From a virus: a DNA stretch of 64,000 bases. The stretch spans positions 15,410 to 79,409 of IMG/VR virus record IMGVR_UViG_3300037847_007805. One strand, written 5' to 3'. Both the position numbers and the translations under genes were made by a program. Below are positions 13,998-64,000 of the stretch, in pieces (positions within the stretch are counted from its first letter, which is position 1; each line of letters begins with the position of its first letter). A model generated the notes under the pieces. It was given only the letters and a program-made list of their open reading frames with translations. It made no database searches and was not told where the DNA came from.

Positions 13998-14810
13998 ATG
14001 AGAGAGCCAAAATTAGGAGTAGCTGTAGGGAAAAAAGGTGTAGGGAAAACTTACACTACTGATAAGGTAATACAAAGCTATGTTCAAGGTAACCCGAGCA
14101 AAGGTGTAAAACCAAGACGAGCATTAATACTTGATGTAAATGATGAATTTGAACATATAAAAGCCTTACGAGTAAAAGACGTTATGAAGTTTTCTGTCCA
14201 CCCTACCGTAGAAGCAAGAAGAATACGACCATTTATGGAAGATGGTCAAAAAATGACCATAAGAGAAATTCAAGAAACTTTATTTGAAATCTTAAGACAC
14301 TATAGAGGCGGTTTACTTTTGATAGAGGATATAAACAGATATATTTCAGACCAACTACCAAATGACGTTGTGGGTGCTATATGTACAAACAGACACTCTG
14401 ACACAGATATAATTCTTCATTTTCAATCTATTGGAAGGGTAACTACAAAAATTTGGCAGAACCTAAATTGGTTAAGATTTCATAAAAACACCGATTCTGT
14501 AGATAGACACAAACACAAATTTGAAGATAAATTTGAATATCTTAAAATAGCAGAAATTTTAGTAAACCATAAATACTATAATGGCGATGAAAGATATTTT
14601 TTATATGTAGATGTTGATAGTGAGAAGATATTAGGAAACGTATCAAAAAAAGATTTAGATTTTGCTATCGAGGAATACATTTCTAAGTATTATAAAAAAA
14701 TTGTTACTCCACTTTTAAATCAAGTTGGCATGGACGGAAAAAAGAAATATACACCCGAATCAGCCATCAAAGAGATTAAATCCAAGATTTACAAGAATTT
14801 TAGTAAATAA
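13998..14810 (+). CDS. A32/FtsK-HerA-type genome packaging ATPase
   Basis: Walker A GKKGVGKT, Walker B LLLIED, Arg finger NRH and sensor ILHFQS; 270 aa with no nuclease domain. Confidence 0.8.
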   Translation: MREPKLGVAVGKKGVGKTYTTDKVIQSYVQGNPSKGVKPRRALILDVNDEFEHIKALRVKDVMKFSVHPTVEARRIRPFMEDGQKMTIREIQETLFEILRHYRGGLLLIEDINRYISDQLPNDVVGAICTNRHSDTDIILHFQSIGRVTTKIWQNLNWLRFHKNTDSVDRHKHKFEDKFEYLKIAEILVNHKYYNGDERYFLYVDVDSEKILGNVSKKDLDFAIEEYISKYYKKIVTPLLNQVGMDGKKKYTPESAIKEIKSKIYKNFSK

Positions 14811-30600: not shown

Positions 30601-33600
30601 TGTTACAGGCACACCTGTTACAAGTAGTGGTAACATAACTTTAAATGTTCCAACAGCGAGTGCAACGAAACGAGGTGCTTTATCTTCTACAGATTGGTCT
30701 ACTTTTAATAGTAAAACTGATTGTGTAGGAACTGTTACAAGTGTAGGTTTAACAGCAGGTACGGGAATATCTGTATCAGGAAGCCCTGTAACAAGTAGTG
30801 GCTCAATAACTGTATGTAATACTGACAAAGGTTCTTCGCAATGTATTTTCAAATCTATCGCAGTATCAGGACAAAATACTATTACAGCAGATAGCAATGC
30901 CGACACACTTACATTTGCAGGTTCAGGTATAGCTATTACGACTGACGATAGTACCGATACTGTAACATTTACAGTAACTGATGCGGGTGGAACTGTTACA
31001 GAGGTTTGTGCAGTTACAGGAACATCGGGTACAGATTTTAATATAGGTGGAAGTCCAATTACTACAAACGGAACTCTAACCTTCAATCTCCCTGTTGCTT
31101 CGGCTTCAGCTACAGGTAAATTATCTTCAACTGATTGGAATACATTTAATAATAAAACTGATTGCACGGGAACGGTTACAAGCGTTTCAGGTAGCAATGG
31201 ATTATGTGGAAGTGTTACAACTTCAGGAAGTATTTGTGTAGATTATGCAGGAGTTGATAACATAATTTTATCAGCAACAGACGTAACGGGTAATACTATA
31301 GGTTCAACCGATAAATTACTTATTTCTTGTCAAACTAATGGTAATGTTGGTTATTATTGTGTATCTGATTTACCATTTTCAAATTGTACAGGTACTGTTA
31401 CAAGTGTAGGATTAACAGCAGGTTCGGGTATTTCCGTTTCAGGTAGCCCTATAACGGGTAGTGGCTCAATGACTGTTACTAACTCTGATAGAGGTTCTTC
31501 TCAATGTATCTTTAAAACTTTTGCTGTATCAGGACAAAACGATATTGTAGCTGATTCAAATAGCGACACAGTAACTTTAGTAGGTTCAGGTATTGCAATA
31601 ACTACAGACGATTCTACAGATACAATAACATTTACTGTTACAGATGCAGGGGGTACGGTAACAAGTGTAGGATTGTGTACAGGAACTACAGGTACAGATA
31701 TAAATGTTTCAAATACACCTATTACTACAAGTGGTAATATAACTTTAAACGTACCAACCGCAAGTGCATCAAATCGTGGTGCTTTATCAAGTACAGATTG
31801 GAGTACATTTAACGACAAACTTGATGATGTTACCGCAGGTGTAGGTATATCCATTTCAGGTTCAGGAAATAAAACTATATGCAATAGTGATAGAGGTTCT
31901 GCACAATGTATATTTAAAAAGGTGGCAGTTTCAGGACAAGCTACAATTCAAGCTGACACAAATGATGACACGCTTACTTTTGCAGAAGGTACAGGCATTA
32001 CAATTACAACAAATGATACAACCGATACTGTTACGATAAGTAGTTCAATCGTTGGTGATATTACTTGCGTGGGTGCAGGTGCAGGACTAACGGGTGGGGG
32101 TAGCACAGGTGATGTAACATTATGCGTAGATTATGGTAGTACAGGTCTGATTGCAGATGCAACTTGTGTTGGTTCAGTAAGTAGTTCAGATTTCTTATTA
32201 GTAGGTTTAGCCGATAGTAGTTCAGGAGAAACAAGAAAAATTGAAATAGTTGATTTCTTCTCTTGTGTCGGTGGAGATATAACAGGAGTAACAGGCTCGG
32301 GTGGACTATGTGGTGGTGGAACTTCAGGTGCTGTAACTGTTTGTGTAGATTATGAGGGTGCTGACAACATTATTTGTACAGCTTCTTCATGTGAAGGCAC
32401 AGCTATAGGAACAGGTGATGCAATAATTGTTAATGAAGATGCATCAGATTGTGTTAGACGACATTTAGTAAGTGATTTACCATTTTCAAATTGTACAGGT
32501 ACTGTTACAAGTGTAGGTTTGACCGCAGGTTCAGGAATTTCGGTTTCAGGAAGTCCAATAACGGGTAGTGGTTCAATGACTGTTACTAACTCTGACAGGG
32601 GTTCTTCACAATGTATTTTCAAAACTATAGCCGTATCAGGTCAAAGTGATATAGTCGCAGATACAAATAGCGATACTTTAACATTTGCAGAGGGAACTAA
32701 TGTTACAATAACCACAAACGCTACAAGTGATACTCTTACTATTTCTTCATCTGCAACAACTTGTACAGGAACTGTAACAAGTGTAGGTCTTACAACGGGT
32801 ACAACAGGGACAGATGTAAATGTTTCAGGAAGTCCAATTACAGGAAGTGGTGATATTACTTTAAATATACCTACTGCAAGTGCATCAAATCGTGGTGCTT
32901 TATCATCTACAGATTGGTCTACATTCAATGATAAAACTGATTGCTTAGGAACTGTTACAAGTGTAGGTTTAACAGCAGGTACGGGAATATCAGTTTCAGG
33001 AAGCCCTATTACAAGTAGCGGGTCAATGACTGTTACGAACTCTGATAGAGGTTCTTCACAATGCATATTTAAAACGATTGCTGTTTCAGGACAAAGTGAT
33101 ATTGTAGCAGATACAAATAGTGATACACTTACATTTGTTGGTTCGGGTGTTACAATTACTACAGATGCATCAACCGATACAGTTACTTTCACAGCTACAC
33201 AGGGAGATATTACAGGTGTTACAGGAACAAGTGGTCTTTGCGGTGGTGGAACAGTAGGAGATGTTTCAGTATGTGTAGATTATGCAGGTACAGATAACAT
33301 TATTGCTTGTTCCCCTTGTACAGCAACGGGTACACTTTCTACAAGTGATTGTATTATGATTAGTAACAATGCTACTAACAATGTTACTAAAGCAACAATA
33401 GGTTTATTACCATTCTCAAATTGTCAAGGTGATATAACAAACGTAACAGCTACTTGTGGATTGTGTGGCGGTGGTGCTTCAGGTAGTGTATCAGTTTGTG
33501 TTGATTATTGTGGAAGTGATAATATAATTTTAGCCTCACCATATCCTGCGTTTGTAATCAATTCAAGTGATAAAATTCTTACTACAAACACTTCTAATTG

Positions 33601-36050: not shown

Positions 36051-36500
36051 ATGATTTATTGGTTCACAGGACAACCTGCTCATGGTAAAACTACCCTTGC
36101 AAGAAAACTAATGAAATATCACAAAGATATTTATGATAACAAAATCAAAAGCATATCTATTGATGGCGATGATTTAAGAGAAGTTTTTAATAACAAAGAT
36201 TACAGCGAAAAAGGAAGAAGGAAAAACATAAAATTAGCACAAGATTTGGCTCTGTTTATGCATCATAAGGGTTACGATGTATATGTTTCTTTGGTAACTC
36301 CATTTATAGATATGAGAGAAGATTTCAAACAATTAATGAAATCTGAAATTAAAGAATTTTACGTTTACTGTAGTAAAGAAAGGGAAAGAGAAATGTATAA
36401 AGTAAAAGATTATCAGCCACCAAAAGATAACTTTACTTTGATTGATACTACTGAAGATAGTATAGAAAAATCTCTTTTTAAAATTTTACAAAATATATGA
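36051..36500 (+). CDS. cysC: Adenylyl-sulfate (APS) kinase
   Basis: IYWFTGQPAHGKTTLA, IDGDDLR, DYSEKGRRKNI. Confidence 0.8.
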   Translation: MIYWFTGQPAHGKTTLARKLMKYHKDIYDNKIKSISIDGDDLREVFNNKDYSEKGRRKNIKLAQDLALFMHHKGYDVYVSLVTPFIDMREDFKQLMKSEIKEFYVYCSKEREREMYKVKDYQPPKDNFTLIDTTEDSIEKSLFKILQNI

Positions 36501-37375
36501 ATATAATACTAAACATTCAAGGCGGTCTTGGTAAAAACATTTTAGCAACAGCTTTGGTAAAAGGAATTAAAAAAAGATACCCCAACTCCTTTCTAATCGT
36601 TATTAGTGGTTATCCTGATGTGTTTTTAAATAATCCGTCTGTCAGCAAATGTTTAAGGCATGACCAACAGGTAGGCATTTATAATAAATACATAAAAAAT
36701 CACGACACAAAATTTTTCATAATTGACCCTTACATGACGAGTGATTTTCAAAATGGAAAAGGACATTTGTTACGAATTTGGTTTGAATTGTGTGGTCTAA
36801 ACTATAAGGGTGAGCAACCTCAATTTTTTCTTTCTAAAGTCGAAAAACAGTATTATAAAACAGCATATCCAATAACAAAACCAATTTTAGCTATTCAACC
36901 TAATGGTGGGGCTAAAAATCAGGGTATGTATTATAATTGGGCAAGAGATATTCCTGAAGTTATTACTACAAAAATTATAAATAAATTTAAAAACGATTAT
37001 CAGATTGTTCATATAAAACGTCAAGACCAAATGTCGTTTACAAACACTACACAGGCTTTAGACAGTTTTAGAAGCATTGCATATTTAATATCCATATCTG
37101 AAAAGTGTTTGTTTATTGATAGTTTTGCACAGCACTTGGCTAAAGCAGTAAATAAAAAAGCTGTTGTGCTTTGGTCAGCAACAGAGCCTGAAATGTTTGG
37201 CTACGATTCACATATAAACATTAAAGCAAATAAATACACAAAAGAACCACAATACAATCATGGACACTATAAGCCTTTTGAACTTGTTGAGCCAATAGAA
37301 AAATGTCCTTATCAAGATTTATCTGAAATTTTTGATTATAATTTAGTTTATAACAAACTTTATTCGTATAATTAG
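36497..37375 (+). CDS. GT-B glycosyltransferase, GT9-like
   Basis: GGLGKNI at N-terminus; FIDSFAQHLAKA..KKAVVLW...FGY. Confidence 0.7.
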   Translation: MNIILNIQGGLGKNILATALVKGIKKRYPNSFLIVISGYPDVFLNNPSVSKCLRHDQQVGIYNKYIKNHDTKFFIIDPYMTSDFQNGKGHLLRIWFELCGLNYKGEQPQFFLSKVEKQYYKTAYPITKPILAIQPNGGAKNQGMYYNWARDIPEVITTKIINKFKNDYQIVHIKRQDQMSFTNTTQALDSFRSIAYLISISEKCLFIDSFAQHLAKAVNKKAVVLWSATEPEMFGYDSHINIKANKYTKEPQYNHGHYKPFELVEPIEKCPYQDLSEIFDYNLVYNKLYSYN

Positions 37376-40077: not shown

Positions 40078-41549
40078 GTTACAAAGAAGCCATAAGTTTA
40101 AAACTAACAAATAACACTTCTATTGACCAACCCATTGGAATACTTGGGGGGCAATCTTCTACATATCAAAACTCAAATAATAACATTTTAGTTGAGTGGG
40201 ATTTAGCAGGTGAAACTTTTTCTGCCACAACTGTTACTCTTGATACTACTGTGCCTGTTACGGTAGATTTGCCTTCTCAAAACATACAGGGAGTAGTAGA
40301 AGCGTTAAATACAACAGATAAAGCTATCTTTACTACTTCAGGAACAAAAGTTTATGCAACATCTTTAAGAGATAGTAGTGTTCAATCCGCAGATATAAGT
40401 GTTGGTACAAGTGGAACATATTTAGCAAAGGTTTTAGGAACAACTGCCGATAGTGTTAATTTTACTCAATTTTCTCCGTCATCTGTAATTAGTGCATTTG
40501 AAAGTGCCACAACAAATACAGGAACAACTTTATACATAGACCCAAGTGATACAATTACTGTAGGGACACAGCTTTATGATGATTCTTTTGGAAATACCGC
40601 ATCAACAGTAACGCAGTTTGCAACTCAAGGACTTGGCTCTAACCCAAATGTGCTTACTATTCATAATGGAATTATAACAGAAGTAACTCCCCGAGGTAAC
40701 TTAACTAATAATTTTTCGAGGGATATAACTGCGATGCCTAATTTTAATAAATCTACAGTTTTTACAGGAACTACGGGGCAGACGGGTAAATTCATAAAAC
40801 AATGGGTGCTTTCAACAAATGGTAAATATGTATTTGCCATTGAAGATAATGCTGTAATTTACAGATGGACATTTACAACCGCATGGGATTTTTCGACATT
40901 TGATAATACTTCAACTACCTCGCTTGACTTAACAGGTCTTGATGGTTCTGTAGGCACTCAAAAAGGATTGGCTATAAACCCCATTGGAAATAAATTATAT
41001 TTTTATGATAATGGTAATGGTGGCTATAGAAGTGTTAGTTTAAGCACTCCGTTTGATTTATCAACTGCTACGTTAGATAGTTTTACAGCTAACGTAAGTA
41101 CAGCAAGACAAATTTGTTGGAATAATGATGGCACATCTTTAGTGGGTATTGATAAAACTGCGGGTATTAATATAAGTGCTTATTCAACACCTTTTGATTT
41201 ATCTTCATATCAATCTAATCAGAATGAGCCGACTATGACAACCTACATAAACCCCTCAAAAAGTAATGCATCATGTGAGAGTTTAATTATTTCGCCTGAT
41301 GGGACTAAATGGTATGTACTGTTTTTCGCTGTTGGTACTCCGAATGAATTTGAAACCATACAGGTAGATATTAGTAGTTATAGCGATATAACAACACTAA
41401 ACCAAACAGACAACAATAGGCAATTCGATGGAATATCAGAGGTTACAAATGGCTTGTGGTGGAATGAAAATCAAACTGAATTATTTTTCCACCAATCAGC
41501 AAATGGTGGTGATAATGATATTTATAGAGTTGATTTCCCTGCACCTTAA
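40074..41549 (+). CDS. Putative spike or vertex protein with C-terminal beta-propeller
   Basis: Repeats WDFST, PFDLST, PFDLSS with NPIGNKLY and SPDGTKWY blades; Thr-rich N-terminal half. Confidence 0.55.
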   Translation: MSYKEAISLKLTNNTSIDQPIGILGGQSSTYQNSNNNILVEWDLAGETFSATTVTLDTTVPVTVDLPSQNIQGVVEALNTTDKAIFTTSGTKVYATSLRDSSVQSADISVGTSGTYLAKVLGTTADSVNFTQFSPSSVISAFESATTNTGTTLYIDPSDTITVGTQLYDDSFGNTASTVTQFATQGLGSNPNVLTIHNGIITEVTPRGNLTNNFSRDITAMPNFNKSTVFTGTTGQTGKFIKQWVLSTNGKYVFAIEDNAVIYRWTFTTAWDFSTFDNTSTTSLDLTGLDGSVGTQKGLAINPIGNKLYFYDNGNGGYRSVSLSTPFDLSTATLDSFTANVSTARQICWNNDGTSLVGIDKTAGINISAYSTPFDLSSYQSNQNEPTMTTYINPSKSNASCESLIISPDGTKWYVLFFAVGTPNEFETIQVDISSYSDITTLNQTDNNRQFDGISEVTNGLWWNENQTELFFHQSANGGDNDIYRVDFPAP

Positions 41550-42349
41550 AATTCATCATCTATATCCAACGATTTGGTAAGGTTAGAATATAATGGGTTT
41601 TTACCAACCATTTTCCCTCTAATAAGATTTACGTTGTCAGATTCATCAACAACTATATAATCGCCACCCTCAACATGGTCATCATAAGAAATGGCTTTTT
41701 GTAACTTTAAATCTTCTTTTGGCAGGGTTTTACTTAATTGTTTTAGGACTATTTTTTTTACAGTCCAATACTGTGGGTCTTTAGTATCATTAAAATATAA
41801 ATGATTTGGAGTTTTTTGCATTTTAATAATTTGAGAAATTTCTGTTTTAGACATCACTTTAAATACAATATCGTCATCATTTAGCTTTACACAAGCATAA
41901 ATGTATTTTATATTTTCAGCTTTTTTTACAGCTTTTTCGGAAGGTATGTGGGTTAGCTTCGGGTTAATTCCTAATTCGTACTCGAAGTCATCACCCTCAA
42001 AAACTACCTCTGTCCAAACTTTTTTTATCTTATTGCTACGATATAATAAAGTGATAAGCCCCTTGTAACCAATTATAGGGTTTATGGAGTTTTTAAAAGG
42101 TATGAAGAAAAACTCACCAACCAACTCACTTGGATTTAACCCTAACTCGGCACAATGCAAAATAGATGCAAATAATGATGCAGGATTTTTTTGAAATGCT
42201 GATTGAAGCTGTGGACTTCTTTTCAGTTCCGTTATCATAATCTGCTTGAATTTCGCAGGACTTATTGGACTATCCTCAAGAAGTTCAGTAAAGTTTTTCT
42301 TTTCATATTTTTCTATTGTGTTTTGAAAATTTGTTATAAGTTCTTTCAT
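41546..42349 (-). CDS. recT: RecT-family ssDNA annealing recombinase
   Basis: AELGLNP...FFIPF...IIGYKGLI.L..RS...V.EGDDFEYELG...KKIVLKQL.K.LP. Confidence 0.9.
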   Translation of the reverse strand: MKELITNFQNTIEKYEKKNFTELLEDSPISPAKFKQIMITELKRSPQLQSAFQKNPASLFASILHCAELGLNPSELVGEFFFIPFKNSINPIIGYKGLITLLYRSNKIKKVWTEVVFEGDDFEYELGINPKLTHIPSEKAVKKAENIKYIYACVKLNDDDIVFKVMSKTEISQIIKMQKTPNHLYFNDTKDPQYWTVKKIVLKQLSKTLPKEDLKLQKAISYDDHVEGGDYIVVDESDNVNLIRGKMVGKNPLYSNLTKSLDIDDEF

Positions 42350-42588: not shown

Positions 42589-43383
42589 TTAATAATATAC
42601 TGTATCAATTAAGGGTAATCGAGTAGCATATTCACAATCCTCAAACAAAGGACATTGTGTGCAGTTTTTAAGGCTTGGTTTGGCTTTAAAAATCTTATCT
42701 AACGGATTACTATTGATTTGGTTATATACGAAGGCTACGTTGTTCTTATGAAGTTCTAATGTGGATTCATCAATAACTTGTTTTATGATTTTTGCTTGTT
42801 TTGGGTTTGATTGTGAAAAAACAAAGTAATAAAAGTCAAAATCTTCAGGTTCATGATTTAAACAATCTTTTGCCAACAGGGTGTATTGAACCCCCTGTAT
42901 CATTAATTTATGCTTTTCTGTTAATGAGTTTGTTTCCCAACCCCTTTCGTCCCATTTGTTATCTATAAGACCACTATATTTTAAATCTATGAAGCAGAAC
43001 CTATCGTTCCATTTTGCATAAATATCTGCAATCCCATTCATTTGTTCATTTTTCAATGAAAGCCCTACGTCAATAATTTCTATTCCATATTCTTTTACAA
43101 TATCTTTAAAGTAAGAAGCACTATCTTCTGCCCTTTGAAAAGGTGCAGACAATTTTTCACGGGCTGTTCCTTTATAGCTTATTTTAGGTTCAGGAACTTT
43201 TCCGTTTCTTGGTAAAGCCCCTGTGCATTTATATTCAAAATAGTTACCTAAGTCCATAGCTTCACTACTTGGAAACTCTACACCCTCAAAATACTTTGCT
43301 TTTATTTGTAAACCACAAACATCTACGAAATCAGATTTATAATCTGAAAAATCTTTTAAAAATGATTGGCTTATTCTATGCAT
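42589..43383 (-). CDS. PD-(D/E)xK exonuclease, Cas4/RecE-like partner of RecT
   Basis: GIADI...FIDLKY...QxxxY; N-terminal Cys plus C-terminal CxxCPxxxxC. Confidence 0.75.
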   Translation of the reverse strand: MHRISQSFLKDFSDYKSDFVDVCGLQIKAKYFEGVEFPSSEAMDLGNYFEYKCTGALPRNGKVPEPKISYKGTAREKLSAPFQRAEDSASYFKDIVKEYGIEIIDVGLSLKNEQMNGIADIYAKWNDRFCFIDLKYSGLIDNKWDERGWETNSLTEKHKLMIQGVQYTLLAKDCLNHEPEDFDFYYFVFSQSNPKQAKIIKQVIDESTLELHKNNVAFVYNQINSNPLDKIFKAKPSLKNCTQCPLFEDCEYATRLPLIDTVYY

Positions 43384-43681
43384 TATTTATTTTTTTAAAT
43401 TCATTTTCTTCAATCCAACCATCTGAAGTTACATCTGTTCCAACCCAAATGTGATTTTTACCATGTCTTTTTCTTTCTGAAACTCCTTTTACAGGCATTT
43501 CAATCCTTACATCTTCAAGAGTTCTCAAGTCAAGAACATCTGTTTTATTTGCCAATTCGTTTAACATATTATCTGCTTCATCTTTTGAGTATGCTTCCAT
43601 AATCACAGGTTTTGGGTTACCCATAAAGTAATACTTATAGAATTTCACTTTTGGTTTTGACCAATCCTTCATATTTCTCAT
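43376..43681 (-). CDS. Hypothetical protein
   Basis: 101-aa ORF in operon. Confidence 0.55.
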   Translation of the reverse strand: MRNMKDWSKPKVKFYKYYFMGNPKPVIMEAYSKDEADNMLNELANKTDVLDLRTLEDVRIEMPVKGVSERKRHGKNHIWVGTDVTSDGWIEENEFKKINNA

Positions 43682-43959: not shown

Positions 43960-44356
43960 ATACACATAGTTTATATTTATTTTCATAGTATTTTTTAATT
44001 CCATAAGACAGTAAAACCTTTTTCATAAGTAAAAACAAAAACTCTTTATCTTGTTTTTTTAAATCCATAAAAGTTTCTTTTACAATATCATCTTCAGATT
44101 GTTTGATTCCATAATAAAGTAATTCCATTAAAAACTCTGAAATTACTATTTCCTTTATAGGAAGTTCCTCTGTCAGTTGCTCGGTAATCATTATGTCCTT
44201 AAAAAAGTGCATAAAATTACTATCCTTTAATAGACCATCTACCATAACAGCAGTATTCCTGTCCTCTTTCCTGTGTGCTATATCAAGCAAAGATTCAGTA
44301 GCCCTGTCATCTATCTGCTGAAAAAATACATTCCAATCTTTCTGTGTTATCATCAA
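43958..44356 (-). CDS. Hypothetical protein
   Basis: 132-aa ORF. Confidence 0.55.
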   Translation of the reverse strand: MMITQKDWNVFFQQIDDRATESLLDIAHRKEDRNTAVMVDGLLKDSNFMHFFKDIMITEQLTEELPIKEIVISEFLMELLYYGIKQSEDDIVKETFMDLKKQDKEFLFLLMKKVLLSYGIKKYYENKYKLCV

Positions 44357-44682
44357 AAATCCTTAAAGGCAAATGGTTTGCCTAAAGAATTATTTTTGCA
44401 GTAAGTTAAGAGTGCATTATAGTATTTTAAAGCATCTAAACGATTTTTCGCAACAACTTTCCCATAGAAAAACCAATAGTAATTACCATCGTTATCTAAT
44501 ACTCCAAATTTATAGTTTGTTTTTGAATTAAGAAAGAAATTTTCGTCAATTATGCTTAAAACAGCCATAGGATAGCCCCTTTCGACAAATTCGTTATACT
44601 CAAATTTGTGGGACAATTCTTCTTCAGTAAATGGTATGATTTTAAATTCCACTTCTGTCTTTATTTTAATTACACATGGCAA
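44353..44682 (-). CDS. Hypothetical protein (start uncertain)
   Basis: The TTG start overlaps a promoter-like element. Confidence 0.45.
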   Translation of the reverse strand: MPCVIKIKTEVEFKIIPFTEEELSHKFEYNEFVERGYPMAVLSIIDENFFLNSKTNYKFGVLDNDGNYYWFFYGKVVAKNRLDALKYYNALLTYCKNNSLGKPFAFKDF

Positions 44683-44753: not shown

Positions 44754-45461
44754 CTAATCTACTAACTGCTTGAATAACATATCTTTAGAGGTAAAGTATG
44801 CTGTAACTTTTTCTACGTTTTCAGGAGTATCTCTGTAATAAATACAGTCAGTTTTCCAACAATCAAAGTCATCACCAAGTAAAACAGAGCATTCGTACAT
44901 TAGCTGATAACAAAAATATCTTATGTATTTATAAATCATTCTTTTGTTTTCATCACCTTCATCAATACAAACCCTTTCTCCCATGTATTTACCATCAAAA
45001 CGGGTAAAATGTTTTTTCCTACCTAAAACAGATAAAGTTGCCAATCTAAGGGCTTTAGACGGGCTTTTAAGACCTTTTTCATAAGTATCTTCACTTATTA
45101 TTCCTTTAATCATAGCTATTCTCCAATAAGCATGGTCGAGGTCAGTTCCTGTAACTTTGCCTTTATTGTGGTCGAAATCAAGATTATATTTAGTTACTTC
45201 GTGTTTAGGTGGTAATGCAATCTTTTTTCTTCCTTTCAACCATTTAGTTACATCTCTATTGACACTTTTAAACATAAATAAATAGTTGCGAGGGAAATTT
45301 TTTGAGTGAGGAAAGTAAAACATTGTATTCTCAAAAATAATTTGAGTGGATTCAGATGTTTTTTTTAAGAAGAATTTTGTGTTTTTATTTTTTAAAGTCC
45401 TAATTAATCTATTAGGATTTGAAAACATCATTTTAGTTATTTCATAGTTAAATGAACTCAT
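44754..45461 (-). CDS. Minimal family-B DNA polymerase palm-like protein (no exonuclease domain)
   Basis: Motif A-like GTDLDHAYW, motif B-like KALRLATLSVLG, motif C-like WKTDCIYY. Confidence 0.5.
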   Translation of the reverse strand: MSSFNYEITKMMFSNPNRLIRTLKNKNTKFFLKKTSESTQIIFENTMFYFPHSKNFPRNYLFMFKSVNRDVTKWLKGRKKIALPPKHEVTKYNLDFDHNKGKVTGTDLDHAYWRIAMIKGIISEDTYEKGLKSPSKALRLATLSVLGRKKHFTRFDGKYMGERVCIDEGDENKRMIYKYIRYFCYQLMYECSVLLGDDFDCWKTDCIYYRDTPENVEKVTAYFTSKDMLFKQLVD

Positions 45462-45476
45462 TGTGTCTAATAAGTT

Positions 45477-46361
45477 TTATATTATTCCCCCTTCATCAAA
45501 CATTTCTTCTATTTCTTTTACAGCTTTTCTGTATTCAGCTTTTGTTTTAAGACCAAGTTTAAATTCTTCTAACAGTATTTCTTTTGCTCTATTTTTATCT
45601 GCAAGTGGGGTTCTTTGCCTTGTAGGTTTTTTAACAGTTTCTTTTTTTGATTTCGTTGGTCTTTTTTGTGTTTTTGCTTTTTTTAATCTTTCTCTTTTAG
45701 TTTGCTTTTTCTTTGATTGAACTTTTTTGATACGTTCTACCCTTCCTGTATCTTCTACAGGCACTTCTCTTTCCTGTGCAACTTGACCTTCTTCATCTAA
45801 AAGTTTTGTTCCATCAGATAAAACAAAATCAATAAAATAAGAACAGTTTGAGCCATCATCTTTTTTGTTTGGAACAACTTTTATAATTCCTTCAAACACA
45901 AGTCCACTTTTGTTATCTACAAATTGTCTTATGTTTTCTACAATAGGCTGAACCTCTATTTCGATATTTATGTTTTGAACTTGGTCAATTCTTGTTCTGC
46001 CAAATTCTGAACCCCCATTTACTCTGACTTGAACATTTTGTGGAAGCCCTTGTAGTGTATTTTCTATTTCCCACCACTCTAAAGAAATTATATCAGCTTT
46101 ATTTACAGCGAAAACAGAAAAACAAGGAGAAACTTTTTTTGGTGCTGTTAAGCCTAATGCTAATTCAACCTCTTTTTTAATATCAGCAACTTTGACTTGG
46201 TTTACTGACTTTCCTTTAAATTTAGGATATACATTAGCCGAAGTCCATTTTTGGATTTCATTCCATTTTTCGGGTCTACCCTGCTTCTCAAATTCTTTTT
46301 TGACTTGCTTTGCACACTTGTTAAACAATCGCAAACCATTATTTTTGGGTAATTTCGGCAT
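45477..46361 (-). CDS. Basic hypothetical protein ending in FDEGGII
   Basis: Lys-rich C-terminal region; terminal FxxGG motif. Confidence 0.6.
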   Translation of the reverse strand: MPKLPKNNGLRLFNKCAKQVKKEFEKQGRPEKWNEIQKWTSANVYPKFKGKSVNQVKVADIKKEVELALGLTAPKKVSPCFSVFAVNKADIISLEWWEIENTLQGLPQNVQVRVNGGSEFGRTRIDQVQNINIEIEVQPIVENIRQFVDNKSGLVFEGIIKVVPNKKDDGSNCSYFIDFVLSDGTKLLDEEGQVAQEREVPVEDTGRVERIKKVQSKKKQTKRERLKKAKTQKRPTKSKKETVKKPTRQRTPLADKNRAKEILLEEFKLGLKTKAEYRKAVKEIEEMFDEGGII

Positions 46362-46469: not shown

Positions 46470-46757
46470 TTAATCCTCAATAGGTGGCTTTTTATATTTC
46501 TTTATTGATGATTTAGAAACCCCAAAATACTTCACAGCTTCATTGATAGAATTATCTTTACAAAACTGATAAATTTTTTCGGCAGTATCACTATCAATTC
46601 GGTTATTTTTAAACCCAATATCGGTTAAATCGTGCTTTTTGCAATGATAGTTTATTGTGCTTTTAGCACACTCTAATTCTTTGGCTATTTCATTGTAGGT
46701 TTTACCTTCCTCTCGAAGCGATAAAATCGCATTTTTTATTTGTCGTGGTCTTGCCAT
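46470..46757 (-). CDS. Double HTH DNA-binding protein
   Basis: GKTYNEIAKELECAKSTINYH and SINEAVKYFGVSKSSI. Confidence 0.75.
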   Translation of the reverse strand: MARPRQIKNAILSLREEGKTYNEIAKELECAKSTINYHCKKHDLTDIGFKNNRIDSDTAEKIYQFCKDNSINEAVKYFGVSKSSIKKYKKPPIED

Positions 46758-46870: not shown

Positions 46871-47392
46871 TTATGCTCTTTTTATGTTTTTGTGAACGTA
46901 TTTAGGATTTATTGCTTTTCCATCTACTAATACTTCATAATGTAGATGGTCGCCCATAGAATTTCCTTTCATTGGGTCATTATATCCACCACCTGATAAT
47001 CCTATAACTTGACCCTTTGTAACCTTATCACCTTTTTTTACAAAAAACTTTTTTAAATGGCAATACTTAGTTGATAAACCGTCTTTATGATTTAATTGAA
47101 TAAATCCACCGCAACCATTCGGCTCTGTGTTTTTAGCGTACTTAACTACTGCATCTGCTACTGCATATACATTGCTTCCTGATTTTGCTCTTAAATCCCA
47201 ACCATTATGCATTCTTCCCCATCTCCAACCATAAGGGCTTGTTATAGCAGTATTGTTGATAGGCGGAAGGTCTATGGCATTAGCATCTCCATATTTTAAA
47301 TCATCTCTTATTCTTTTAAAAACAAGGGGAATACTTACTAAACCAACAGCTATACCAATTCCATAAATTACAAATGGATATTTTTTAAGCAT
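46871..47392 (-). CDS. Membrane-anchored M23 peptidoglycan endopeptidase
   Basis: HNGWD, YCHL, HLHYEV motifs; N-terminal TM. Confidence 0.9.
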   Translation of the reverse strand: MLKKYPFVIYGIGIAVGLVSIPLVFKRIRDDLKYGDANAIDLPPINNTAITSPYGWRWGRMHNGWDLRAKSGSNVYAVADAVVKYAKNTEPNGCGGFIQLNHKDGLSTKYCHLKKFFVKKGDKVTKGQVIGLSGGGYNDPMKGNSMGDHLHYEVLVDGKAINPKYVHKNIKRA

Positions 47393-47838
47393 TAGTCAAA
47401 TTTTCCTTTGATAAATAAATTATAGTATTCTTCAGTAACTTGTCCTTTTACAGCATCAGGATAGAAATTTTTAAAATTTTGCCAACTTTTATCATCTCCG
47501 TCAAAGCCCATCTGCTCATTAAGAACTGCATTTTCAGTTAAGTTTCCAAATTTTCCATCAACAGCCAAACCATAAGAACCCGCATCATTCAAAAATTTCT
47601 GTAATGCTTTTACTTTATCCCCACCGCTTCCTTTTCTAAGTGGAAACCCTTTATCTGTATATTTGCTTGTTACAACAGAACTTACTTCATCGGGAAGATT
47701 TACTATTGTTTCTTTTACATCGGTTACAGCTTCACCAAAACTTGTTGGCTTTTTTCTAAGTAAGCTAAAAACTAAATAACCAACTCCTGCTGTGGCAACC
47801 CCGCCTAATGTTATGAAAATTATTTTTTTTGTGTTCAT
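47392..47838 (-). CDS. Membrane-anchored peptidoglycan-binding domain protein
   Basis: FPLRKGSGGDKVKALQKFL...LAVDGKFGNLTENAV. Confidence 0.85.
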   Translation of the reverse strand: MNTKKIIFITLGGVATAGVGYLVFSLLRKKPTSFGEAVTDVKETIVNLPDEVSSVVTSKYTDKGFPLRKGSGGDKVKALQKFLNDAGSYGLAVDGKFGNLTENAVLNEQMGFDGDDKSWQNFKNFYPDAVKGQVTEEYYNLFIKGKFD

Positions 47839-47848
47839 TTTGAGTAAT

Positions 47849-48319
47849 TTATGATGTTAATATGTTAGAGGATTTTACAAAAGTATCGCCCACTTTTTTA
47901 TATCCTAAATTATTTATTTTTTGTTCCACTTCGTCTAAATCGTTTTTTAACGAAACTAATTTTTTATAAAATATCACCCGTCCAAATCCTGTTGGCACTT
48001 GACCTGTTTTAACAAAATTTTCAAATGCAACTCTATTACGAATATCTCTATTCATCAAAGGATTATTTCGTGTTTTGTCAATTTCTTTTTTATATATTTT
48101 ATTAATTTCTTCATATTGGTCAAGAAAAAACTGTGCTTCTTCTTTTGTAGTGTCTTTTACAACGCTTGAAGAATCTAATACGTTATCTTTTGGTGTAGAA
48201 GCTACTGAATCATCTACAACTGATTGTTGCTCTAATACATTATTCTTTTTTCTAAAGAACATGAAATATGCTAAAACACCTGTAATTGCTAAACCCGATA
48301 CTAAGTATATTTTTTTCAT
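47849..48319 (-). CDS. N-anchored membrane protein; paralog of 48324
   Basis: DTTKEEAQF...LGYKKVGDTFVK. Confidence 0.65.
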   Translation of the reverse strand: MKKIYLVSGLAITGVLAYFMFFRKKNNVLEQQSVVDDSVASTPKDNVLDSSSVVKDTTKEEAQFFLDQYEEINKIYKKEIDKTRNNPLMNRDIRNRVAFENFVKTGQVPTGFGRVIFYKKLVSLKNDLDEVEQKINNLGYKKVGDTFVKSSNILTS

Positions 48320-48323
48320 AGTT

Positions 48324-48815
48324 TTATCCTAATACTGTTCCTGCTTTTACAAATCTATTTCCAACCTGAACCCAACCTAATCTTGCAATTTTATCTAAAA
48401 GAGGCTGTATTTCTTCTCTCCTCATTTTCTCTGCTTTCTTTTTTTTGTTAGCAATAATAGTCATATTACTACAAGTCCTTCCCCTACAATTTTTATTTGT
48501 AGCAAGAGCATCGGCTTGTTCGATTAAATCTTTTACTTGTTTTATTAAAAACTGTGCTTCTTCTACTGATGTATCTTGCGTATAAAAATTTGATAACGGG
48601 TCTTTTTTGACAGTAGTTTGAACTGAAGAACCATCTTTTTCTTGCCTAACTATAGTTGCACCTAAAAAACTTTGTTCAGGTTTTGATGGCGGGGAATCGG
48701 GTATTGGTGGTTGCATAGGCATTGTAGATGCTTGTTGAGGCTTTCTTTTTAGAAAAAAGTAACCCAAAACTCCTACAGTTCCTAATAATCCAATAAGTAA
48801 TAATTTGTTTTTCAT
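48324..48815 (-). CDS. N-anchored membrane protein; paralog of 47849
   Basis: DTSVEEAQF...LGWVQVGNRFVK. Confidence 0.65.
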   Translation of the reverse strand: MKNKLLLIGLLGTVGVLGYFFLKRKPQQASTMPMQPPIPDSPPSKPEQSFLGATIVRQEKDGSSVQTTVKKDPLSNFYTQDTSVEEAQFLIKQVKDLIEQADALATNKNCRGRTCSNMTIIANKKKKAEKMRREEIQPLLDKIARLGWVQVGNRFVKAGTVLG

Positions 48816-52013: not shown

Positions 52014-52490
52014 CTATAGTTTAGCATATATTGATTCGGCTACTTGCATTCTTTTTGGACTAATAACAGCAGGTCTTTCAAAATACTTTGCAAAATTATA
52101 AGCTGACTGATATGGTGTTTTTGCTTCTATCAGTTTTTGATATGCCTTTTTTTCAGTATTTTTTAATTCCCAATCCAAATAATCAAGCTGACCTTGAAAA
52201 GTATTTGGGTCTTTGTTGTTTTCTTTAGCCCAAGCATTAAGCCTTTGCCATCTCGTTTTGTGCCATTGTGCCAATCCAAAAGAAGTACCGTTGTCGCCAA
52301 CAGCTAAAGGATTATAGGAAGATTCAACAAAAATGTTTCCTGCAATCCCTGAAGAATTAGCTTTGCTATAGCCTAAAGACATTAAGTATTTAGCAATGCC
52401 TACTCCATCTTTTGATAAAACAGTTTCTTTTACTTTAAAAAACAAAAAAGCACTTGCACTTAATCCTATTAAAAATGGAATTAAATACAT
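52014..52490 (-). CDS. Membrane-anchored phage tail-type lysozyme (Phage_lysozyme2)
   Basis: GIAGNIFVES...GLAQW...QLDYLDWEL...FERP. Confidence 0.85.
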   Translation of the reverse strand: MYLIPFLIGLSASAFLFFKVKETVLSKDGVGIAKYLMSLGYSKANSSGIAGNIFVESSYNPLAVGDNGTSFGLAQWHKTRWQRLNAWAKENNKDPNTFQGQLDYLDWELKNTEKKAYQKLIEAKTPYQSAYNFAKYFERPAVISPKRMQVAESIYAKL

Positions 52491-53721: not shown

Positions 53722-54393
53722 TTACAGATTGTAGCCAATTAATTTTTCAGTTTTCAAATCAATTTTATTTATTATGTCGTCTACAGAAAAAATTTGATTT
53801 GTTTTTCCTTCAATATATTCAGCACATTCTTTCTTATAAGTTGTTATATTTTGTATTTCAGGATTTACTTGTAATAAATGAAATTTTTGTGATATAACTT
53901 GCAGAGTATTTTCTAATTCATTTTTTAAATCTTCATATTTTATGAAATGGTAATTCTGAACTGAAAATGGCATAGTATTAAATAAAAATTCTGCTTTTGT
54001 TTTCCGTAATTCAAAAATGTTATTGTAGGGTCTGTTTTTTTCTATAAGGTGATAACTTTCGGGAATATCTTTTCCAAAGTCATGTTTGTTTTCTGTATCG
54101 CCACTATCATAAATAGACCATATTTTTTCATTCAAAAAACTTTCTTTATCTTTTTTGGCACTATATACTACATGATGTGGCTGATTCCAAAAAGAGTTTA
54201 ACCAATCTAAAGGGTGTCTTACAATTCCTAAAAACAAAGTTTCGTTTGAAGCTGATAAATTAGCATAGCCAAAATAGTGTTTCCAACCATAATCCCAAGT
54301 TACAGGAATACCAAAATTTTTTTCAATTAGAAGTTCTAAATAATTAGTTCCTGTACACCTCTCTCCGTAAATTGTAAAATTTTTAATTTTCAT
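53722..54393 (-). CDS. Sulfotransferase-like protein
   Basis: IYGERCTGTNYL (PSB-loop-like), IVRHPLDWL.S, IKYEDL. Confidence 0.65.
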   Translation of the reverse strand: MKIKNFTIYGERCTGTNYLELLIEKNFGIPVTWDYGWKHYFGYANLSASNETLFLGIVRHPLDWLNSFWNQPHHVVYSAKKDKESFLNEKIWSIYDSGDTENKHDFGKDIPESYHLIEKNRPYNNIFELRKTKAEFLFNTMPFSVQNYHFIKYEDLKNELENTLQVISQKFHLLQVNPEIQNITTYKKECAEYIEGKTNQIFSVDDIINKIDLKTEKLIGYNL

Positions 54394-55060
54394 AATTCCA
54401 AAAATTAGTAAATGTGTCAATCTCCTGCCCAAACGCTTCTCTAAAATAAGATATTTCGTAAGGGTTCAGTTCAGTTCTCCAAGAATGAACTTTACCACTT
54501 CTAAAAGCATTTTTTAAAGGTAATATATTTTTATGTAATACCTTATCTTTCAAATCATTAACAAAAGATTGTGTATAAGGAATTTCTAAAAAGTCATATA
54601 GTTTTGAAACTGATTCATTAAAATTATTTACAACATCTTGAAATCGTATATTGTATGAATAATTATAATTTCTAATTTGATAAATTTCTTGTAGATATTT
54701 TTTGACTTCATCTTTAGTTCTTTCGTTGCTATATTCTGTCCAAGTAACTTTTCTTAAGGAGTTGGCTGTAGCCAAAGGAAATCTATCTACAATAATTTTT
54801 TTACAATTAGGAAAATCATTTACAATTTCCCTGTGATGTAAAGTATGTATTGGAGTTTTTTCAAAAACTAATTTATTAGGATTATTGTTTATGTGTTTTT
54901 GTATTTCACTCTTAGGAGAACTTGAATTGACGTAAAGTCCTGATTCAGAAGTAGTATTATCTTTTCTAATAGCAAATGTATTTTGAGCATGATATAAAAT
55001 AGACCAAACTAAAGTAGTTCCACCTCTCGGAAGCCCAAATACAAAAGCTATATTACTCAT
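54383..55060 (-). CDS. PAPS-dependent sulfotransferase
   Basis: FVFGLPRGGTTL, EKTP.H, R.P....NS, IRFQDV, FRSGKVHSW. Confidence 0.8.
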   Translation of the reverse strand: MSNIAFVFGLPRGGTTLVWSILYHAQNTFAIRKDNTTSESGLYVNSSSPKSEIQKHINNNPNKLVFEKTPIHTLHHREIVNDFPNCKKIIVDRFPLATANSLRKVTWTEYSNERTKDEVKKYLQEIYQIRNYNYSYNIRFQDVVNNFNESVSKLYDFLEIPYTQSFVNDLKDKVLHKNILPLKNAFRSGKVHSWRTELNPYEISYFREAFGQEIDTFTNFWNYEN

Positions 55061-55794
55061 AACATTTTTGTTATAAGGTTAGTATCATCAGTTTGTTTCC
55101 AAGTAATTAAATCGGTGTTAAAATCTGATTTATCATGTACAGCTTTTCCCTTTCTTTTTTTCCATTTTTCAGAGATAAGCTGACCGTTATTTACTTCGTA
55201 AAGATGATTAGCGTAGTAGTCGCAAGTTTTCTCCCATTCTTCTACAGAAACAGCTTTCCCATAGTGCTTGACTTTACCTAAAGTAAATTCTTTTTTATTT
55301 GGTATAAATGGCTCACGGTGTGGGAAATTTAAGCCCATTTCAGGACGAAACAATGTAATTATTTCTCTATACTCTATTCCACAGTATTCTCTTTCTAAAA
55401 AATGCTTATTTACATCGTTAGGAGTAATGTAAAAATCAAAGAACCTGCATCTAATAGCATTTGCATTGATACCATATAGCCATATTTTATCAAAATCTAT
55501 AAACTCATCAGCATCAAAATAATAAACCCAATCAGGTTTATACCTTAAACACGCTTGATAGATTTCATTTCTTTGAGTACCTTCTAATTCAAGCCTTTTT
55601 TTTGGGTCTGATTCCCATTTTTTATTTTCTATAATTGTTCTGACTTTTGGGCTATGTTTACAAACTTCTACTGTTTTATCCGTAGAGCAATCATCGTAAA
55701 CTAAAATATCAGAACAAAAATTACTAAGATGTTTCAGCGTATGACCGATAACATTTTCTTCATTTCTTATTCTTGTTATACCTACTATATTCAT
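55057..55794 (-). CDS. GT2-family glycosyltransferase
   Basis: RIRNEE, VYDDCSTDKT, WVYYFDADE. Confidence 0.85.
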   Translation of the reverse strand: MNIVGITRIRNEENVIGHTLKHLSNFCSDILVYDDCSTDKTVEVCKHSPKVRTIIENKKWESDPKKRLELEGTQRNEIYQACLRYKPDWVYYFDADEFIDFDKIWLYGINANAIRCRFFDFYITPNDVNKHFLEREYCGIEYREIITLFRPEMGLNFPHREPFIPNKKEFTLGKVKHYGKAVSVEEWEKTCDYYANHLYEVNNGQLISEKWKKRKGKAVHDKSDFNTDLITWKQTDDTNLITKML

Positions 55795-55795
55795 T

Positions 55796-56443
55796 TTATT
55801 TGTGTGCTAATACAAAATACTCTAAATATCCATTGGGTTTGTAATTACCATTTTCACCATACCCAACAAGATTTCCTTCAGTTATATCTATCTTACTATA
55901 TCCCGTGCTTTGAAAAAGATTTTGTAGTTCTTGTTTTTCATAAAGGTTTACAAATTGAGTTTCTTTATAGTACAAATTTGGTTTTTGAGGAAACTGAATA
56001 AAAACCTTTCCATTGTCATTTAGACACTCGTGTAAATTTTTTAGAATTGGTGTGTGGTATTTTTTATCATTATGTTGAAATACCATAATACTATAAATAA
56101 AATCAAAGTAATTTATGTCTTGAATAAGTGTAAGACCATCTGAATAATGAGTTTTAATATCAGAATTATTTATATTTCGTAAAAACTTTAAACTTGCATC
56201 AGCCCCATGTAGTTCATCAGCTTTTAAATGTTTTAAAATTCTTGCAACCCCACAGCCAAATTCAAGAACTTTAATTTTTTTTGCTTCAAATTCAAAATCA
56301 ATAATATCTTGAATCAATTTAGCTTGTTGTTCTCCTTCGTTATTAAACTGTTCATCAGTCCTTTTAGGTAAAATAAAATCTTTCCAATTATCTTCAGCTT
56401 CGATATTTTTCCATGTGTCTTTTATAAAGTTGTCTTGTATCAT
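55796..56443 (-). CDS. Class I SAM-dependent methyltransferase
   Basis: VLEFGCGVAR, GADAS, FDFIYS..VFQH, L.DNG. Confidence 0.85.
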   Translation of the reverse strand: MIQDNFIKDTWKNIEAEDNWKDFILPKRTDEQFNNEGEQQAKLIQDIIDFEFEAKKIKVLEFGCGVARILKHLKADELHGADASLKFLRNINNSDIKTHYSDGLTLIQDINYFDFIYSIMVFQHNDKKYHTPILKNLHECLNDNGKVFIQFPQKPNLYYKETQFVNLYEKQELQNLFQSTGYSKIDITEGNLVGYGENGNYKPNGYLEYFVLAHK

Positions 56444-60361: not shown

Positions 60362-61576
60362 TTAAAATAAGTGAATGAATTTAGCTACTTGACCATGATT
60401 TGGATTATGTAAAAATCCCTCTACAGCTTTTGGATTATGCTGATAACCGTTTCGATGATGCCAACCATCTGTTCCTGATGGAGTTCTAAGAGATTCAACA
60501 GTTACACCTATATAATCTTTTAATACTTTATGATGTATATGATGAGTGTATATGTATCTATATTTTGTACAAGCCCATGATTCAGCACTTTCTTGAGCCA
60601 TAAGTAGAGGTAAATCTTTTTCTTTTGCACCGTCCCCATGAGTAGATGCAATCAAATTTTTACCATATTGATAATACTTTCTATGTGATATACTACAATC
60701 AAAAGTAATGTTCTTGTTTCTCCTAAACCAAGTTTCAATAGTTTGTGCTAAGAAAAAACCATGTGTGTAATCATGATTAGAAGGATTATAAACAAAATGT
60801 ACATCAGCTACAGTAAGTAACATTTCTAATACATCAACGTACAATCTTCTTGCTATAAGAAAATTAGTAAACCACATTCCATCAGTATCTTGTGGAGTTC
60901 CACTTGTAGTTTGTCTTTTCGGTGTATCAATGTGCAAAATATCATTCCCTGCTATGAAAAGAATTTTATTTATTTCATAACCTCTTGACTTACTTATAAT
61001 GCCTTGTACACCCTCTAAAACTCTTTTTACAGCAATCTGACTATTATAATCTTCTCCTGTTTCAAATGAATCGCAAAGTTTTCCAATATGAACATCAGCA
61101 GGGTCAATAACTAAAAGGTGTGGGTCGATTAACTCTCTGCGTTTTAATTTAGGATATTTAGGAGAATAATTTTTCATCTCACTAATTATACGATTACCTA
61201 CTTCTTCATAGCTAATCTTTTTAGGTTTCATTTGTGCAGATATATGTTTTGATTTCCACCAATATATATTTGCATCAATAGGGTCGAAGCCTTCTTTCCG
61301 TGCTTCATCTACAAGAGGTTTATGATTAACTTCTAAATGAACCATTTTTTCACAATAAGTTTTTAATTCATTATAGAATGTAGAAAATTCTGTTTCTGTT
61401 AATTCACGAACATCAAGCCTACTTAATGTTTCTTGGGCTATTTTTTTAAAATTTCTCTTGTTTTTAGATTTCCTATAAAGGTTTAAGGAAATGTTGAAGG
61501 CTATAGTTTTATTAACTAAAGACCATACTGTATAATGTTTTGGGGCTTTCTCGTTTTTAGGTTGGAGTTGTGCCAT
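60362..61576 (-). CDS. Calcineurin-like metallophosphoesterase
   Basis: DVHIG, GNDILH.D, SNHD, THGD, HHIHH motifs. Confidence 0.75.
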   Translation of the reverse strand: MAQLQPKNEKAPKHYTVWSLVNKTIAFNISLNLYRKSKNKRNFKKIAQETLSRLDVRELTETEFSTFYNELKTYCEKMVHLEVNHKPLVDEARKEGFDPIDANIYWWKSKHISAQMKPKKISYEEVGNRIISEMKNYSPKYPKLKRRELIDPHLLVIDPADVHIGKLCDSFETGEDYNSQIAVKRVLEGVQGIISKSRGYEINKILFIAGNDILHIDTPKRQTTSGTPQDTDGMWFTNFLIARRLYVDVLEMLLTVADVHFVYNPSNHDYTHGFFLAQTIETWFRRNKNITFDCSISHRKYYQYGKNLIASTHGDGAKEKDLPLLMAQESAESWACTKYRYIYTHHIHHKVLKDYIGVTVESLRTPSGTDGWHHRNGYQHNPKAVEGFLHNPNHGQVAKFIHLF

Positions 61577-63207: not shown

Positions 63208-63397
63208 CTATTTCAATTTTTTCAAAATCTACTTTTCTAATTAAGAAAGACCCGTAGGGCATTTCATCTAATTCAATAATCCTTGGGTCTGAACCTCTTT
63301 CAGGATTTTCTAAAAGTTTTTTTGCTTTTTTATATGCTGATTCATCATCTTTTGCCCATATATCATAAGCAATACTAACTGTATATCTTGTACTCAT
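63164..63397 (-). CDS. Hypothetical protein
   Basis: 77-aa ORF. Confidence 0.55.
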   Translation of the reverse strand: MSTRYTVSIAYDIWAKDDESAYKKAKKLLENPERGSDPRIIELDEMPYGSFLIRKVDFEKIEIDEFRKREAKESIRF

Positions 63398-63936
63398 AAT
63401 TCAGTAATTTTTACAATTTCAATTTGTTCAGGGTCTACAACAACCTCTTTTTCACCTCTATCTTCAAAAACACTTAAGATGTCGCTTTTTTTAACTTTAG
63501 CTTCTATAAGAGTGGGCTTTCCCCCACCTTTTGAAAACCTTTTTGCAAACCATTCAGCTTGTTCTTTGTCATAAGTGAAGGATAGACCTATATTTTCTTC
63601 ATCTAACTCATCTTCTACTCTTACACCTCTATACAAGGTAACTTCGTCTGGAAAGTTGTTGTAAACCTCTAATTCTTCTTTATTCATCATAGATTGAGGA
63701 TTACCCCTGTCATAAAATAATTGAACTAAATCCCAATATCCATAAAAACCGCTTGAAGGAAACTCTGTTACAGTCCAAGAGAATTTAAGTAAGTCATAGA
63801 ATTTATCGTCATCATCTATCAAATAAGAATTTTCAGATAACCATTTTAATCTTTCTTGTTTAGGTAATAAAACTAAAACACTATCCCAATGTTTATCATC
63901 AATAGCTTCTTGAACTTTCTTTTGGATATAATTCAT
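63394..63936 (-). CDS. ADP-ribosyltransferase-fold protein (R-S-E type, putative)
   Basis: LYRG, GLSFT...A.WFA, EKEVVV. Confidence 0.55.
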   Translation of the reverse strand: MNYIQKKVQEAIDDKHWDSVLVLLPKQERLKWLSENSYLIDDDDKFYDLLKFSWTVTEFPSSGFYGYWDLVQLFYDRGNPQSMMNKEELEVYNNFPDEVTLYRGVRVEDELDEENIGLSFTYDKEQAEWFAKRFSKGGGKPTLIEAKVKKSDILSVFEDRGEKEVVVDPEQIEIVKITEL

Positions 63937-64000
63937 TCTAAATACATACCAATCACCAAATGTTTGTAGTTTTTTACGTTTCTTTTCACTAAAAGTTTTT

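Follow-up and report, generated by a model that had tools for sequence, protein, structure and literature searches.

In the protein-primed replication systems of phi29 (terminal protein gp3, polymerase gp2) and PRD1 (terminal protein P8, polymerase P1), a gene for a protein of ~260-290 aa lies directly upstream of the gene for a family-B DNA polymerase (PolB) and is co-transcribed with it. The replicative and protein-primed PolBs known so far count at least 550 aa. We describe here a pair of similar layout, made of a 235-aa protein named PALM and its 294-aa partner B294, in a 64,000-nt stretch of viral DNA (the window) that spans bases 15410-79409 of a 79,409-bp virus record rated complete by CheckV. 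The pair, the inverted terminal repeats (ITRs) of the genome and the missing ordinary polymerase suggest a pared-down, previously undescribed way of copying or repairing the ends of the genome; full-text searches of the literature found no description of such a miniature protein. Among known tailed phages, protein-primed replication occurs in the phi29-like group only (2024 review, PMC11476376).

44754..45461, minus strand: PALM, 235 aa, predicted miniature right-hand polymerase core
45477..46361, minus strand: B294, 294 aa, basic Lys-rich protein with the C-terminal end FDEGGII

Both genes answer to the original prediction, made from the sequence alone: a 235-aa reading frame with DLDHAYW, KxxRxxxLxxLG and KTDCIY in the order of polymerase motifs A, B and C, and a Lys-rich, co-oriented gene upstream of it. 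The likeness to phi29 and PRD1 extends to a linear genome with ITRs, to genes that run inward from the ends and to the common order of the palm motifs. The differences are equally plain: the polymerases of phi29 and PRD1 count 553-572 aa, whereas PALM is devoid of the exonuclease domain, of the TPR1 and TPR2 insertions and of the thumb; their genomes measure 15-19 kb against ~80 kb here; their motif C reads D-T-D where PALM has T-D; and neither PALM nor B294 is detectably similar in sequence to its counterpart.

The piPolBs of pipolins are full-size PolBs that include an exonuclease domain, unlike PALM. They resemble PALM in being encoded by mobile or viral elements and in lacking the first Asp of motif C, and yet piPolB is active (PMC7544198). 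No sequence link between piPolB and PALM was found. In the linear replicons of Streptomyces, which possess long ITRs and an internal origin and rely on the cellular replisome, the ends are completed by protein-primed synthesis with the terminal protein Tpg, Tap and a cellular polymerase. The present genome likewise combines an internal-type initiator, Phg_2220_C, with ITRs and a small polymerase-partner pair, but would use a dedicated miniature polymerase, PALM. No homology to Tpg or Tap was seen, in searches not aimed at these two proteins. The closest published parallel comes from the phage enzymes divPolA1 and divPolA2, divergent PolA polymerases whose thumb is lost or truncated, which keep their catalytic residues and lack an active exonuclease; a globular domain at the N-terminus of divPolA2 is proposed to replace the thumb (PMC11348598). 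PALM would share with them the phage palm, the conserved catalytic residues and the reduced thumb; they are, however, derived from PolA and stand beside a regular polymerase, whereas PALM is PolB-like by its predicted fold and alone in its genome. Herpesvirus UL8 and chordopoxvirus F12, finally, also have a PolB-palm structure without detectable sequence similarity, but they are inactivated derivatives, while PALM retains both metal-binding Asp and the motif-B Lys nearly always.

Motif A of PALM reads TD107-L-D-H-A-Y112-W-R-I-A, motif B K136-ALRLATLSVLG and motif C K-T-D205-C-I-Y-Y. D107 and K136 are 29 residues apart, K136 and D205 69 residues: these spacings leave no space for TPR1 and TPR2. 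The family comprises at least 380 clusters at 90% identity and, at 50% identity, at least 1,124 representative clusters in a full profile search, so that the motifs are not due to chance. Its members are almost without exception standalone proteins of 230-300 aa. Longer or fused forms were absent from the search, which is weak evidence. Besides Met1, D107 and D205 are the sole invariant residues of a 43-sequence alignment reaching down to ~20% identity. Among 244 members, D107 is kept in 244, K136 in 241 and D205 in 239; W113 (237/244) and A116 (240/244) are further conserved positions, and residue 112 is aromatic throughout (Y in 191, F in 53). The Asp residues singled out at the outset thus hold at positions 107 and 205, but not at D109, the second Asp of DLDH, which is variable (N in 132, D in 76, other in 36).

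Neither PALM nor B294 has a match in Pfam, PHROGs, NCBIfam or PADLOC, or by sequence in the PDB, where a PALM profile search came back empty as well; tblastn of PALM against 50,697 phage records gave none either. Cellular genomes with the family amount to three contigs of metagenome-assembled genomes among 185,579 species genomes, and the nearest PALM clusters in the Atlas are all viral, which makes PALM essentially a phage family. It occurs in marine metagenomes of 11 studies.

The AlphaFold2 model of PALM, computed with the family alignment (pLDDT 92.9, pTM 0.84), is a palm of the classical type whose fingers are short, and motifs A, B and C follow one another in right-hand order. An N-terminal β/α domain (residues ~1-60) precedes the palm and short fingers (~61-235). 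D107 ends the strand 103-108, which is followed by a helix; then come a pair of short helices (K136 lies at the beginning of the second), a β-hairpin and a long helix. A second hairpin (199-203 and 206-210) bears T204-D205 at its turn, and a helix and a final strand close the model. The chain stops ~30 residues past the motif-C hairpin and has no room for a thumb; the 3'-5' exonuclease domain of PolB is missing too, in agreement with the earlier reading of a protein with no exonuclease and almost no thumb. The palm is predicted with high confidence and the top structural matches of the model are family-B polymerases, which bears out the proposed fold. A Foldseek search of PALM against the PDB returned only reverse transcriptase (RT) and TERT entries, all weak (best E=1.4e-3).

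As in family B, the Asp of motif A and the metal-binding Asp of motif C are both conserved in PALM. Its motif C does not show the D-T-D with two Asp that is typical of the family: it is [KY]-T-D-C, without the first Asp, as in piPolB. DNA polymerases and RTs carry an aromatic steric gate at motif A Asp +5 (D411/Y416 in RB69, D249/Y254 in phi29, D110/Y115 in HIV-1 RT, D7/Y12 in Dpo4), a position held by Asp in viral RNA-dependent RNA polymerases; the Tyr or Phe present there in all 244 PALM sequences therefore points to the use of deoxynucleoside triphosphates (dNTPs). Judging from conservation and model together, PALM is probably catalytically active, since the unchanging D107 and D205 sit at the metal-carboxylate sites of motifs A and C and a near-invariant Lys lies on the fingers helix.

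B294 is the obligate partner of PALM. We compared the neighbourhoods of 49 related IMG/VR loci: BLAST found a B294 homolog in 46, and in 45 of these it is the gene immediately upstream, read in the same direction as PALM; its stop codon frequently overlaps the start codon of PALM. Inspection of L049 and L050, the most divergent pair of loci, shows an open reading frame (ORF) of 286 or 293 aa with the same place, architecture and motifs. The pair is thus found in 48/49 loci altogether, the remaining one being a truncated contig, and the neighbour proposed as a partner protein proves to be one by its gene order. The B294 family, unannotated, counts at least 380 clusters. T123 and R145 are conserved in 148/148 sequences and C80 in 146/148. 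In its AlphaFold2 model (pLDDT 84), a basic helical N-terminus is followed by an α/β core with T123 and R145; from there a long helix leads, through a Lys-rich linker that is disordered, to a helical hairpin at the C-terminus. Fold searches, in which the core was not queried alone, gave no structural relative of the α/β core: they matched only the trivial helical hairpin and the N-terminal helices. The Atlas structure rows for B294 were left unused, the model there being poor (pLDDT 0.47). Weak matches of the C-terminal hairpin to SHOCT or SHOCT_2 (PF09851 / PF20612) occur in 5-6 of 26 homologs, with E down to 7e-5, and not in the B294 of the window. Four PALM homologs of 354-356 aa (P0011, P0012, P0017 and P0024) bear an N-terminal extension of ~115 aa with the motif E-G-I-F-x-E-D-x-Y-K-E-E-L, which aligns weakly to the SHOCT-like B294 tail (E=0.018).

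B294 is a candidate terminal (primer) protein or, alternatively, a candidate DNA-binding subunit that substitutes for the thumb. Its gene lies immediately upstream of that of the polymerase-like protein, and the genome is linear with ITRs; T123, invariant in the alignment, is the candidate priming residue. A complex prediction for PALM with residues 1-200 of B294 gave a score of 0.19 (mark 0.32), which speaks neither for nor against binding.

The ends of the genome lie partly beyond the window. Coordinates marked G000 or L001 refer to the whole 79,409-bp record, whose left end is 15.4 kb upstream of the window. No terminal repeat is seen at the record's own ends, because on the right the assembly breaks off within an ORF:

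63394..64000, minus strand: first gene of the right arm, cut by the record end; the right ITR begins ~157 nt past the window end

An independent metagenome contig, L131 (3907/3914 identical in the overlap), reaches 192 nt past this break, and its last 36 nt, reverse-complemented, are identical to G000 321-356. Left-end contigs were examined in four public marine runs: in three of them (X1, X2 and X3, from two studies) they fork at position 356 into either the left arm or the reverse complement of the right arm's first gene. Depth is ~1.4-1.5x higher within the repeat in two runs. It follows from the L131 match and the fork that the genome is a linear molecule ending in ITRs of 356 bp or more (left copy G000 1-356). 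The ITR is non-coding, and genes point inward from both genome ends to meet at ~41.5 kb of the window. A pattern search with the left end in viral contigs found no match.

The ITRs looked for after the original prediction are thus present in this genome, and terminal inverted repeats were found in five relatives as well. The IMG/VR end classes of 48 related records include three ITR and no direct terminal repeat. Exact inverted repeats in the three ITR-classed relatives measure 127, 123 and 653 bp. We take 127 and 123 to be the maximum k-mers of the JGI assemblers; if so, each of these two lengths is a lower bound on an inverted repeat (at least k). The third repeat, of 653 bp, adjoins a poly-G run and may be chimeric. 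In two near-complete genomes, G018 and G014, the first ~115 nt recur inverted 0.8-0.9 kb inside the opposite end, and the outer stretch beyond this offset repeat is largely non-coding, without fold-back: the layout is what a long ITR gives when the assembler collapses it. An invertible segment as the source of these offset repeats is disfavoured, because the right ends carry no fold-back copy.

Several small elements lie within or near the terminal repeats. A 12-nt motif, TT[AG][GA]GGGAAGGT, has three copies in the left ITR (L001:30-41, 55-66 and 256-267), and an element TTTG...TATATTTA (TTTG...TAtaTTTa) at ~315-345, by the inner edge of the ITR, is possibly an inward-facing early promoter. 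At the right end of G018, the record behind L047, the ~880-nt terminal stretch (L124) is nearly non-coding and contains four tandem, iteron-like copies of AAGTGGTCAAAT beside the inverted repeat.

PALM is the sole polymerase-like gene of its genome. The separate full polymerase that was to be looked for on the contig was not found: six-frame searches of this genome gave no PolB, PolA, protein-primed PolB (pPolB), PolIII-alpha, DnaB helicase or Prim-Pol. A PolA or PolB family match is missing from each of 20 longer related records, nine of which reach 90% completeness or more, and none of 28 further related records has PolIII-alpha. PF03175 is absent from three complete relatives, while the same family detects the controls phi29 (E=3e-113) and PRD1 (E=7e-84). 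The protelomerase family PF16684 is absent as well, a weak negative whose control was detected in one genome only. The genome does encode the DnaD-like initiator Phg_2220_C.

The pair stands in a conserved module, HTH-B294-PALM-p109-...-p101-exonuclease-RecT, kept in ~26-33 of the 49 loci. In the window its other members are:

46470..46757, minus strand: helix-turn-helix (HTH) protein, 95 aa, at the head of the module; HTH_38 and HTH_7 matches
44353..44682, minus strand: p109, conserved protein of 109 aa directly downstream of PALM; no family match
43376..43681, minus strand: p101, conserved protein of 101 aa adjoining the exonuclease gene; no family match
42589..43383, minus strand: putative PD-(D/E)XK, Cas4-like exonuclease (EXO), 264 aa, with an IDLK motif and a C-terminal CxxCx5C cluster
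41546..42349, minus strand: RecT single-strand annealing protein, last gene of the right arm; PF03837 E=6e-31, phrog_148 E=4e-46

Homologs of the HTH protein lie upstream of B294 in 26/49 loci, those of p109 keep their position in 28/49, p101 recurs in 30/49 and RecT in 32/49. The putative exonuclease, assigned by its sequence motifs, has no library match; its homologs stand between PALM and RecT in 33/49 loci. L049 and L050 have in place of p109 a conserved 149-aa protein directly after PALM (L049:1991-2440 and L050:2360-2809).

In our judgement the chances are even that PALM and B294 form a minimal protein-primed or end-patching DNA synthesis module. We consider this reading the most economical, as palm fold, conserved Asp and ITRs all hold and there is no second polymerase. 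PALM would be a catalytically active DNA polymerase or nucleotidyltransferase of palm type and miniature size, which either descends from the family-B core or has converged on it. Two catalytic metals would be held by D107 at its strand end and by D205 at the turn of its hairpin; K136, on the short fingers helix, would contact the phosphates of the incoming nucleotide; and the always-aromatic D+5 residue, Y112, would keep ribonucleotides out, leaving dNTPs as the substrate. The pair would act on the inverted-repeat ends of the linear genome, where the basic regions of B294 may bind DNA and one of its hydroxyls, that of T123 being the candidate, may be offered as primer. PALM would then join the first nucleotides to the B294 primer, either as protein-primed initiation or as end patching of the Streptomyces kind. 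Bulk synthesis would probably fall to the host replisome, recruited via the DnaD-like initiator, and the repeats may be annealed and processed by RecT and the exonuclease.

Some results qualify this reading. PALM has no sequence or profile match to family B (PF00136 / PF03175), and hhalign gives it a probability below 1% against phi29, PRD1 and a 47-sequence pPolB profile; of the comparison with phi29 and PRD1 proposed earlier, the structural palm likeness to family B therefore stands and the profile likeness does not. B294 likewise scores below 1% against the phi29 and PRD1 terminal proteins, although terminal proteins of different viruses are generally dissimilar to one another, so that this lack of a match carries little weight. 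The virus, moreover, is not PRD1-like: it is an ~80-kb phage, probably tailed. On the whole, the earlier view of a stripped-down polymerase or nucleotidyltransferase for priming or end repair is supported by residue conservation and by the predicted model.

The main rival makes PALM a recombination or repair polymerase that fills gaps or extends the 3' ends made by the exonuclease with RecT, and B294 a non-covalent DNA-binding, thumb-like or oligomerising subunit. We regard it as unlikely, though with enough behind it to be taken seriously. It accounts well for the order HTH-B294-PALM-...-EXO-RecT, kept in ~32/49 loci, and with it for the linkage to RecT; B294 has a basic character, a SHOCT-like tail and no likeness to known terminal proteins, and a DNA-holding partner would be plausible for a polymerase without a thumb. 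It leaves unexplained, however, the strictly invariant Thr of B294 and the link to linear ITR genomes without another polymerase, and the pair is kept in six loci (L003, L004, L009, L011, L049 and L050) without a detected RecT or EXO homolog in the vicinity.

Three other accounts are less likely because of the points that count against each. PALM could be primer-independent like piPolB, whose single-Asp motif C it shares, and make de novo DNA primers for the host replisome in place of a primase while B294 targets DNA; the genome's lack of Prim-Pol and DnaB helicase would fit, with PALM its only polymerase-like gene. We hold this improbable, as PALM shows no detectable sequence link to piPolB or any PolB, a host primase is normally available, and the ITRs are not accounted for by such a role alone. 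That PALM is instead a non-templated nucleotidyltransferase or cyclase (GGDEF, class III cyclase or minimal CRISPR-polymerase-like), making a signalling or decoy nucleotide with no role in replication, we find quite improbable: polymerase structural matches score higher and span more residues, the fingers-helix Lys and the aromatic D+5 residue are polymerase features, there is neither a GGDEF or GGDD motif nor a PADLOC match, and the gene lies in the replication and recombination arm. Hardly probable at all, to our mind, is a catalytically dead PolB-derived scaffold of the UL8 or F12 kind. Inactivated homologs typically lose catalytic residues, whereas both predicted metal-binding Asp of PALM are invariant in the 43-sequence alignment and K136 persists in 241/244.

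Returning to the protein-primed or end-patching module, a bolder form of it, which we advance tentatively and think on balance doubtful, would make PALM and B294 the smallest known protein-primed DNA replication machine, primed by Thr123 and used by 60-100-kb phages of marine and freshwater Bacteroidota. If true, tailed phages beyond the phi29-like group would have their first protein-primed system here, and the pair would become a candidate for a relic, or an extreme reduction, of the PolB lineage. We know of no smaller right-hand DNA polymerase; PALM, if active, would be by far the smallest. Its activity would show what a minimal catalytic core can do with thumb and primer functions supplied in trans, would extend ITR-based and probably protein-primed end replication to widespread, unannotated large phages, and would account for phages that manage without a recognisable polymerase. 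A 235-aa polymerase might, if active, also be of practical interest as a compact enzyme.

Elsewhere in the genome, the only terminase-like match concerns a candidate packaging ATPase:

13998..14810, plus strand: P-loop ATPase, 270 aa, candidate packaging ATPase; phrog_2666 E=9e-7, weak AAA_22 match on residues 3-140

The match is to part of a terminase-large-subunit PHROG, no nuclease family is among the matches, and the PDB gave no informative one. By analogy with phages in which capped DNA is packaged at unit length, the protein may drive packaging without a nuclease; the missing nuclease would suit unit-length packaging. The 324-aa ORF that precedes it (12869-13843, plus strand) has no match.

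Two giant ORFs without a Pfam domain lie in the window: a single one of 3772 aa (24644-35962, plus strand), with a G+C of 0.35-0.39 against ~0.30 elsewhere, and another of 1371 aa (2480-6595). Upstream of the window, L001:9506-13240 (= G000 9506-13240) encodes a 1244-aa polyvalent protein with ART-PolyVal and RelA/SpoT nucleotide-pyrophosphokinase domains, and the next gene an AAA_5 (MoxR-like) ATPase. A group-1 glycosyltransferase is found at L001:7972-9162, a GT9-like match at 36497-37375 of the window, and a cluster of sulfotransferase, family-2 glycosyltransferase and SAM methyltransferase in the right arm (54383-56443, minus strand). The arm of the replication module also holds an M23 peptidase, three small membrane-anchored proteins and a protein with a phage tail lysozyme domain (46871-48815 and 52014-52490, minus strand). 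Near the right genome end, a phrog_704 DNA-repair exonuclease (E=5e-71) and an HD-domain phosphohydrolase are encoded at 60362-61576 and 62635-63207, both on the minus strand.
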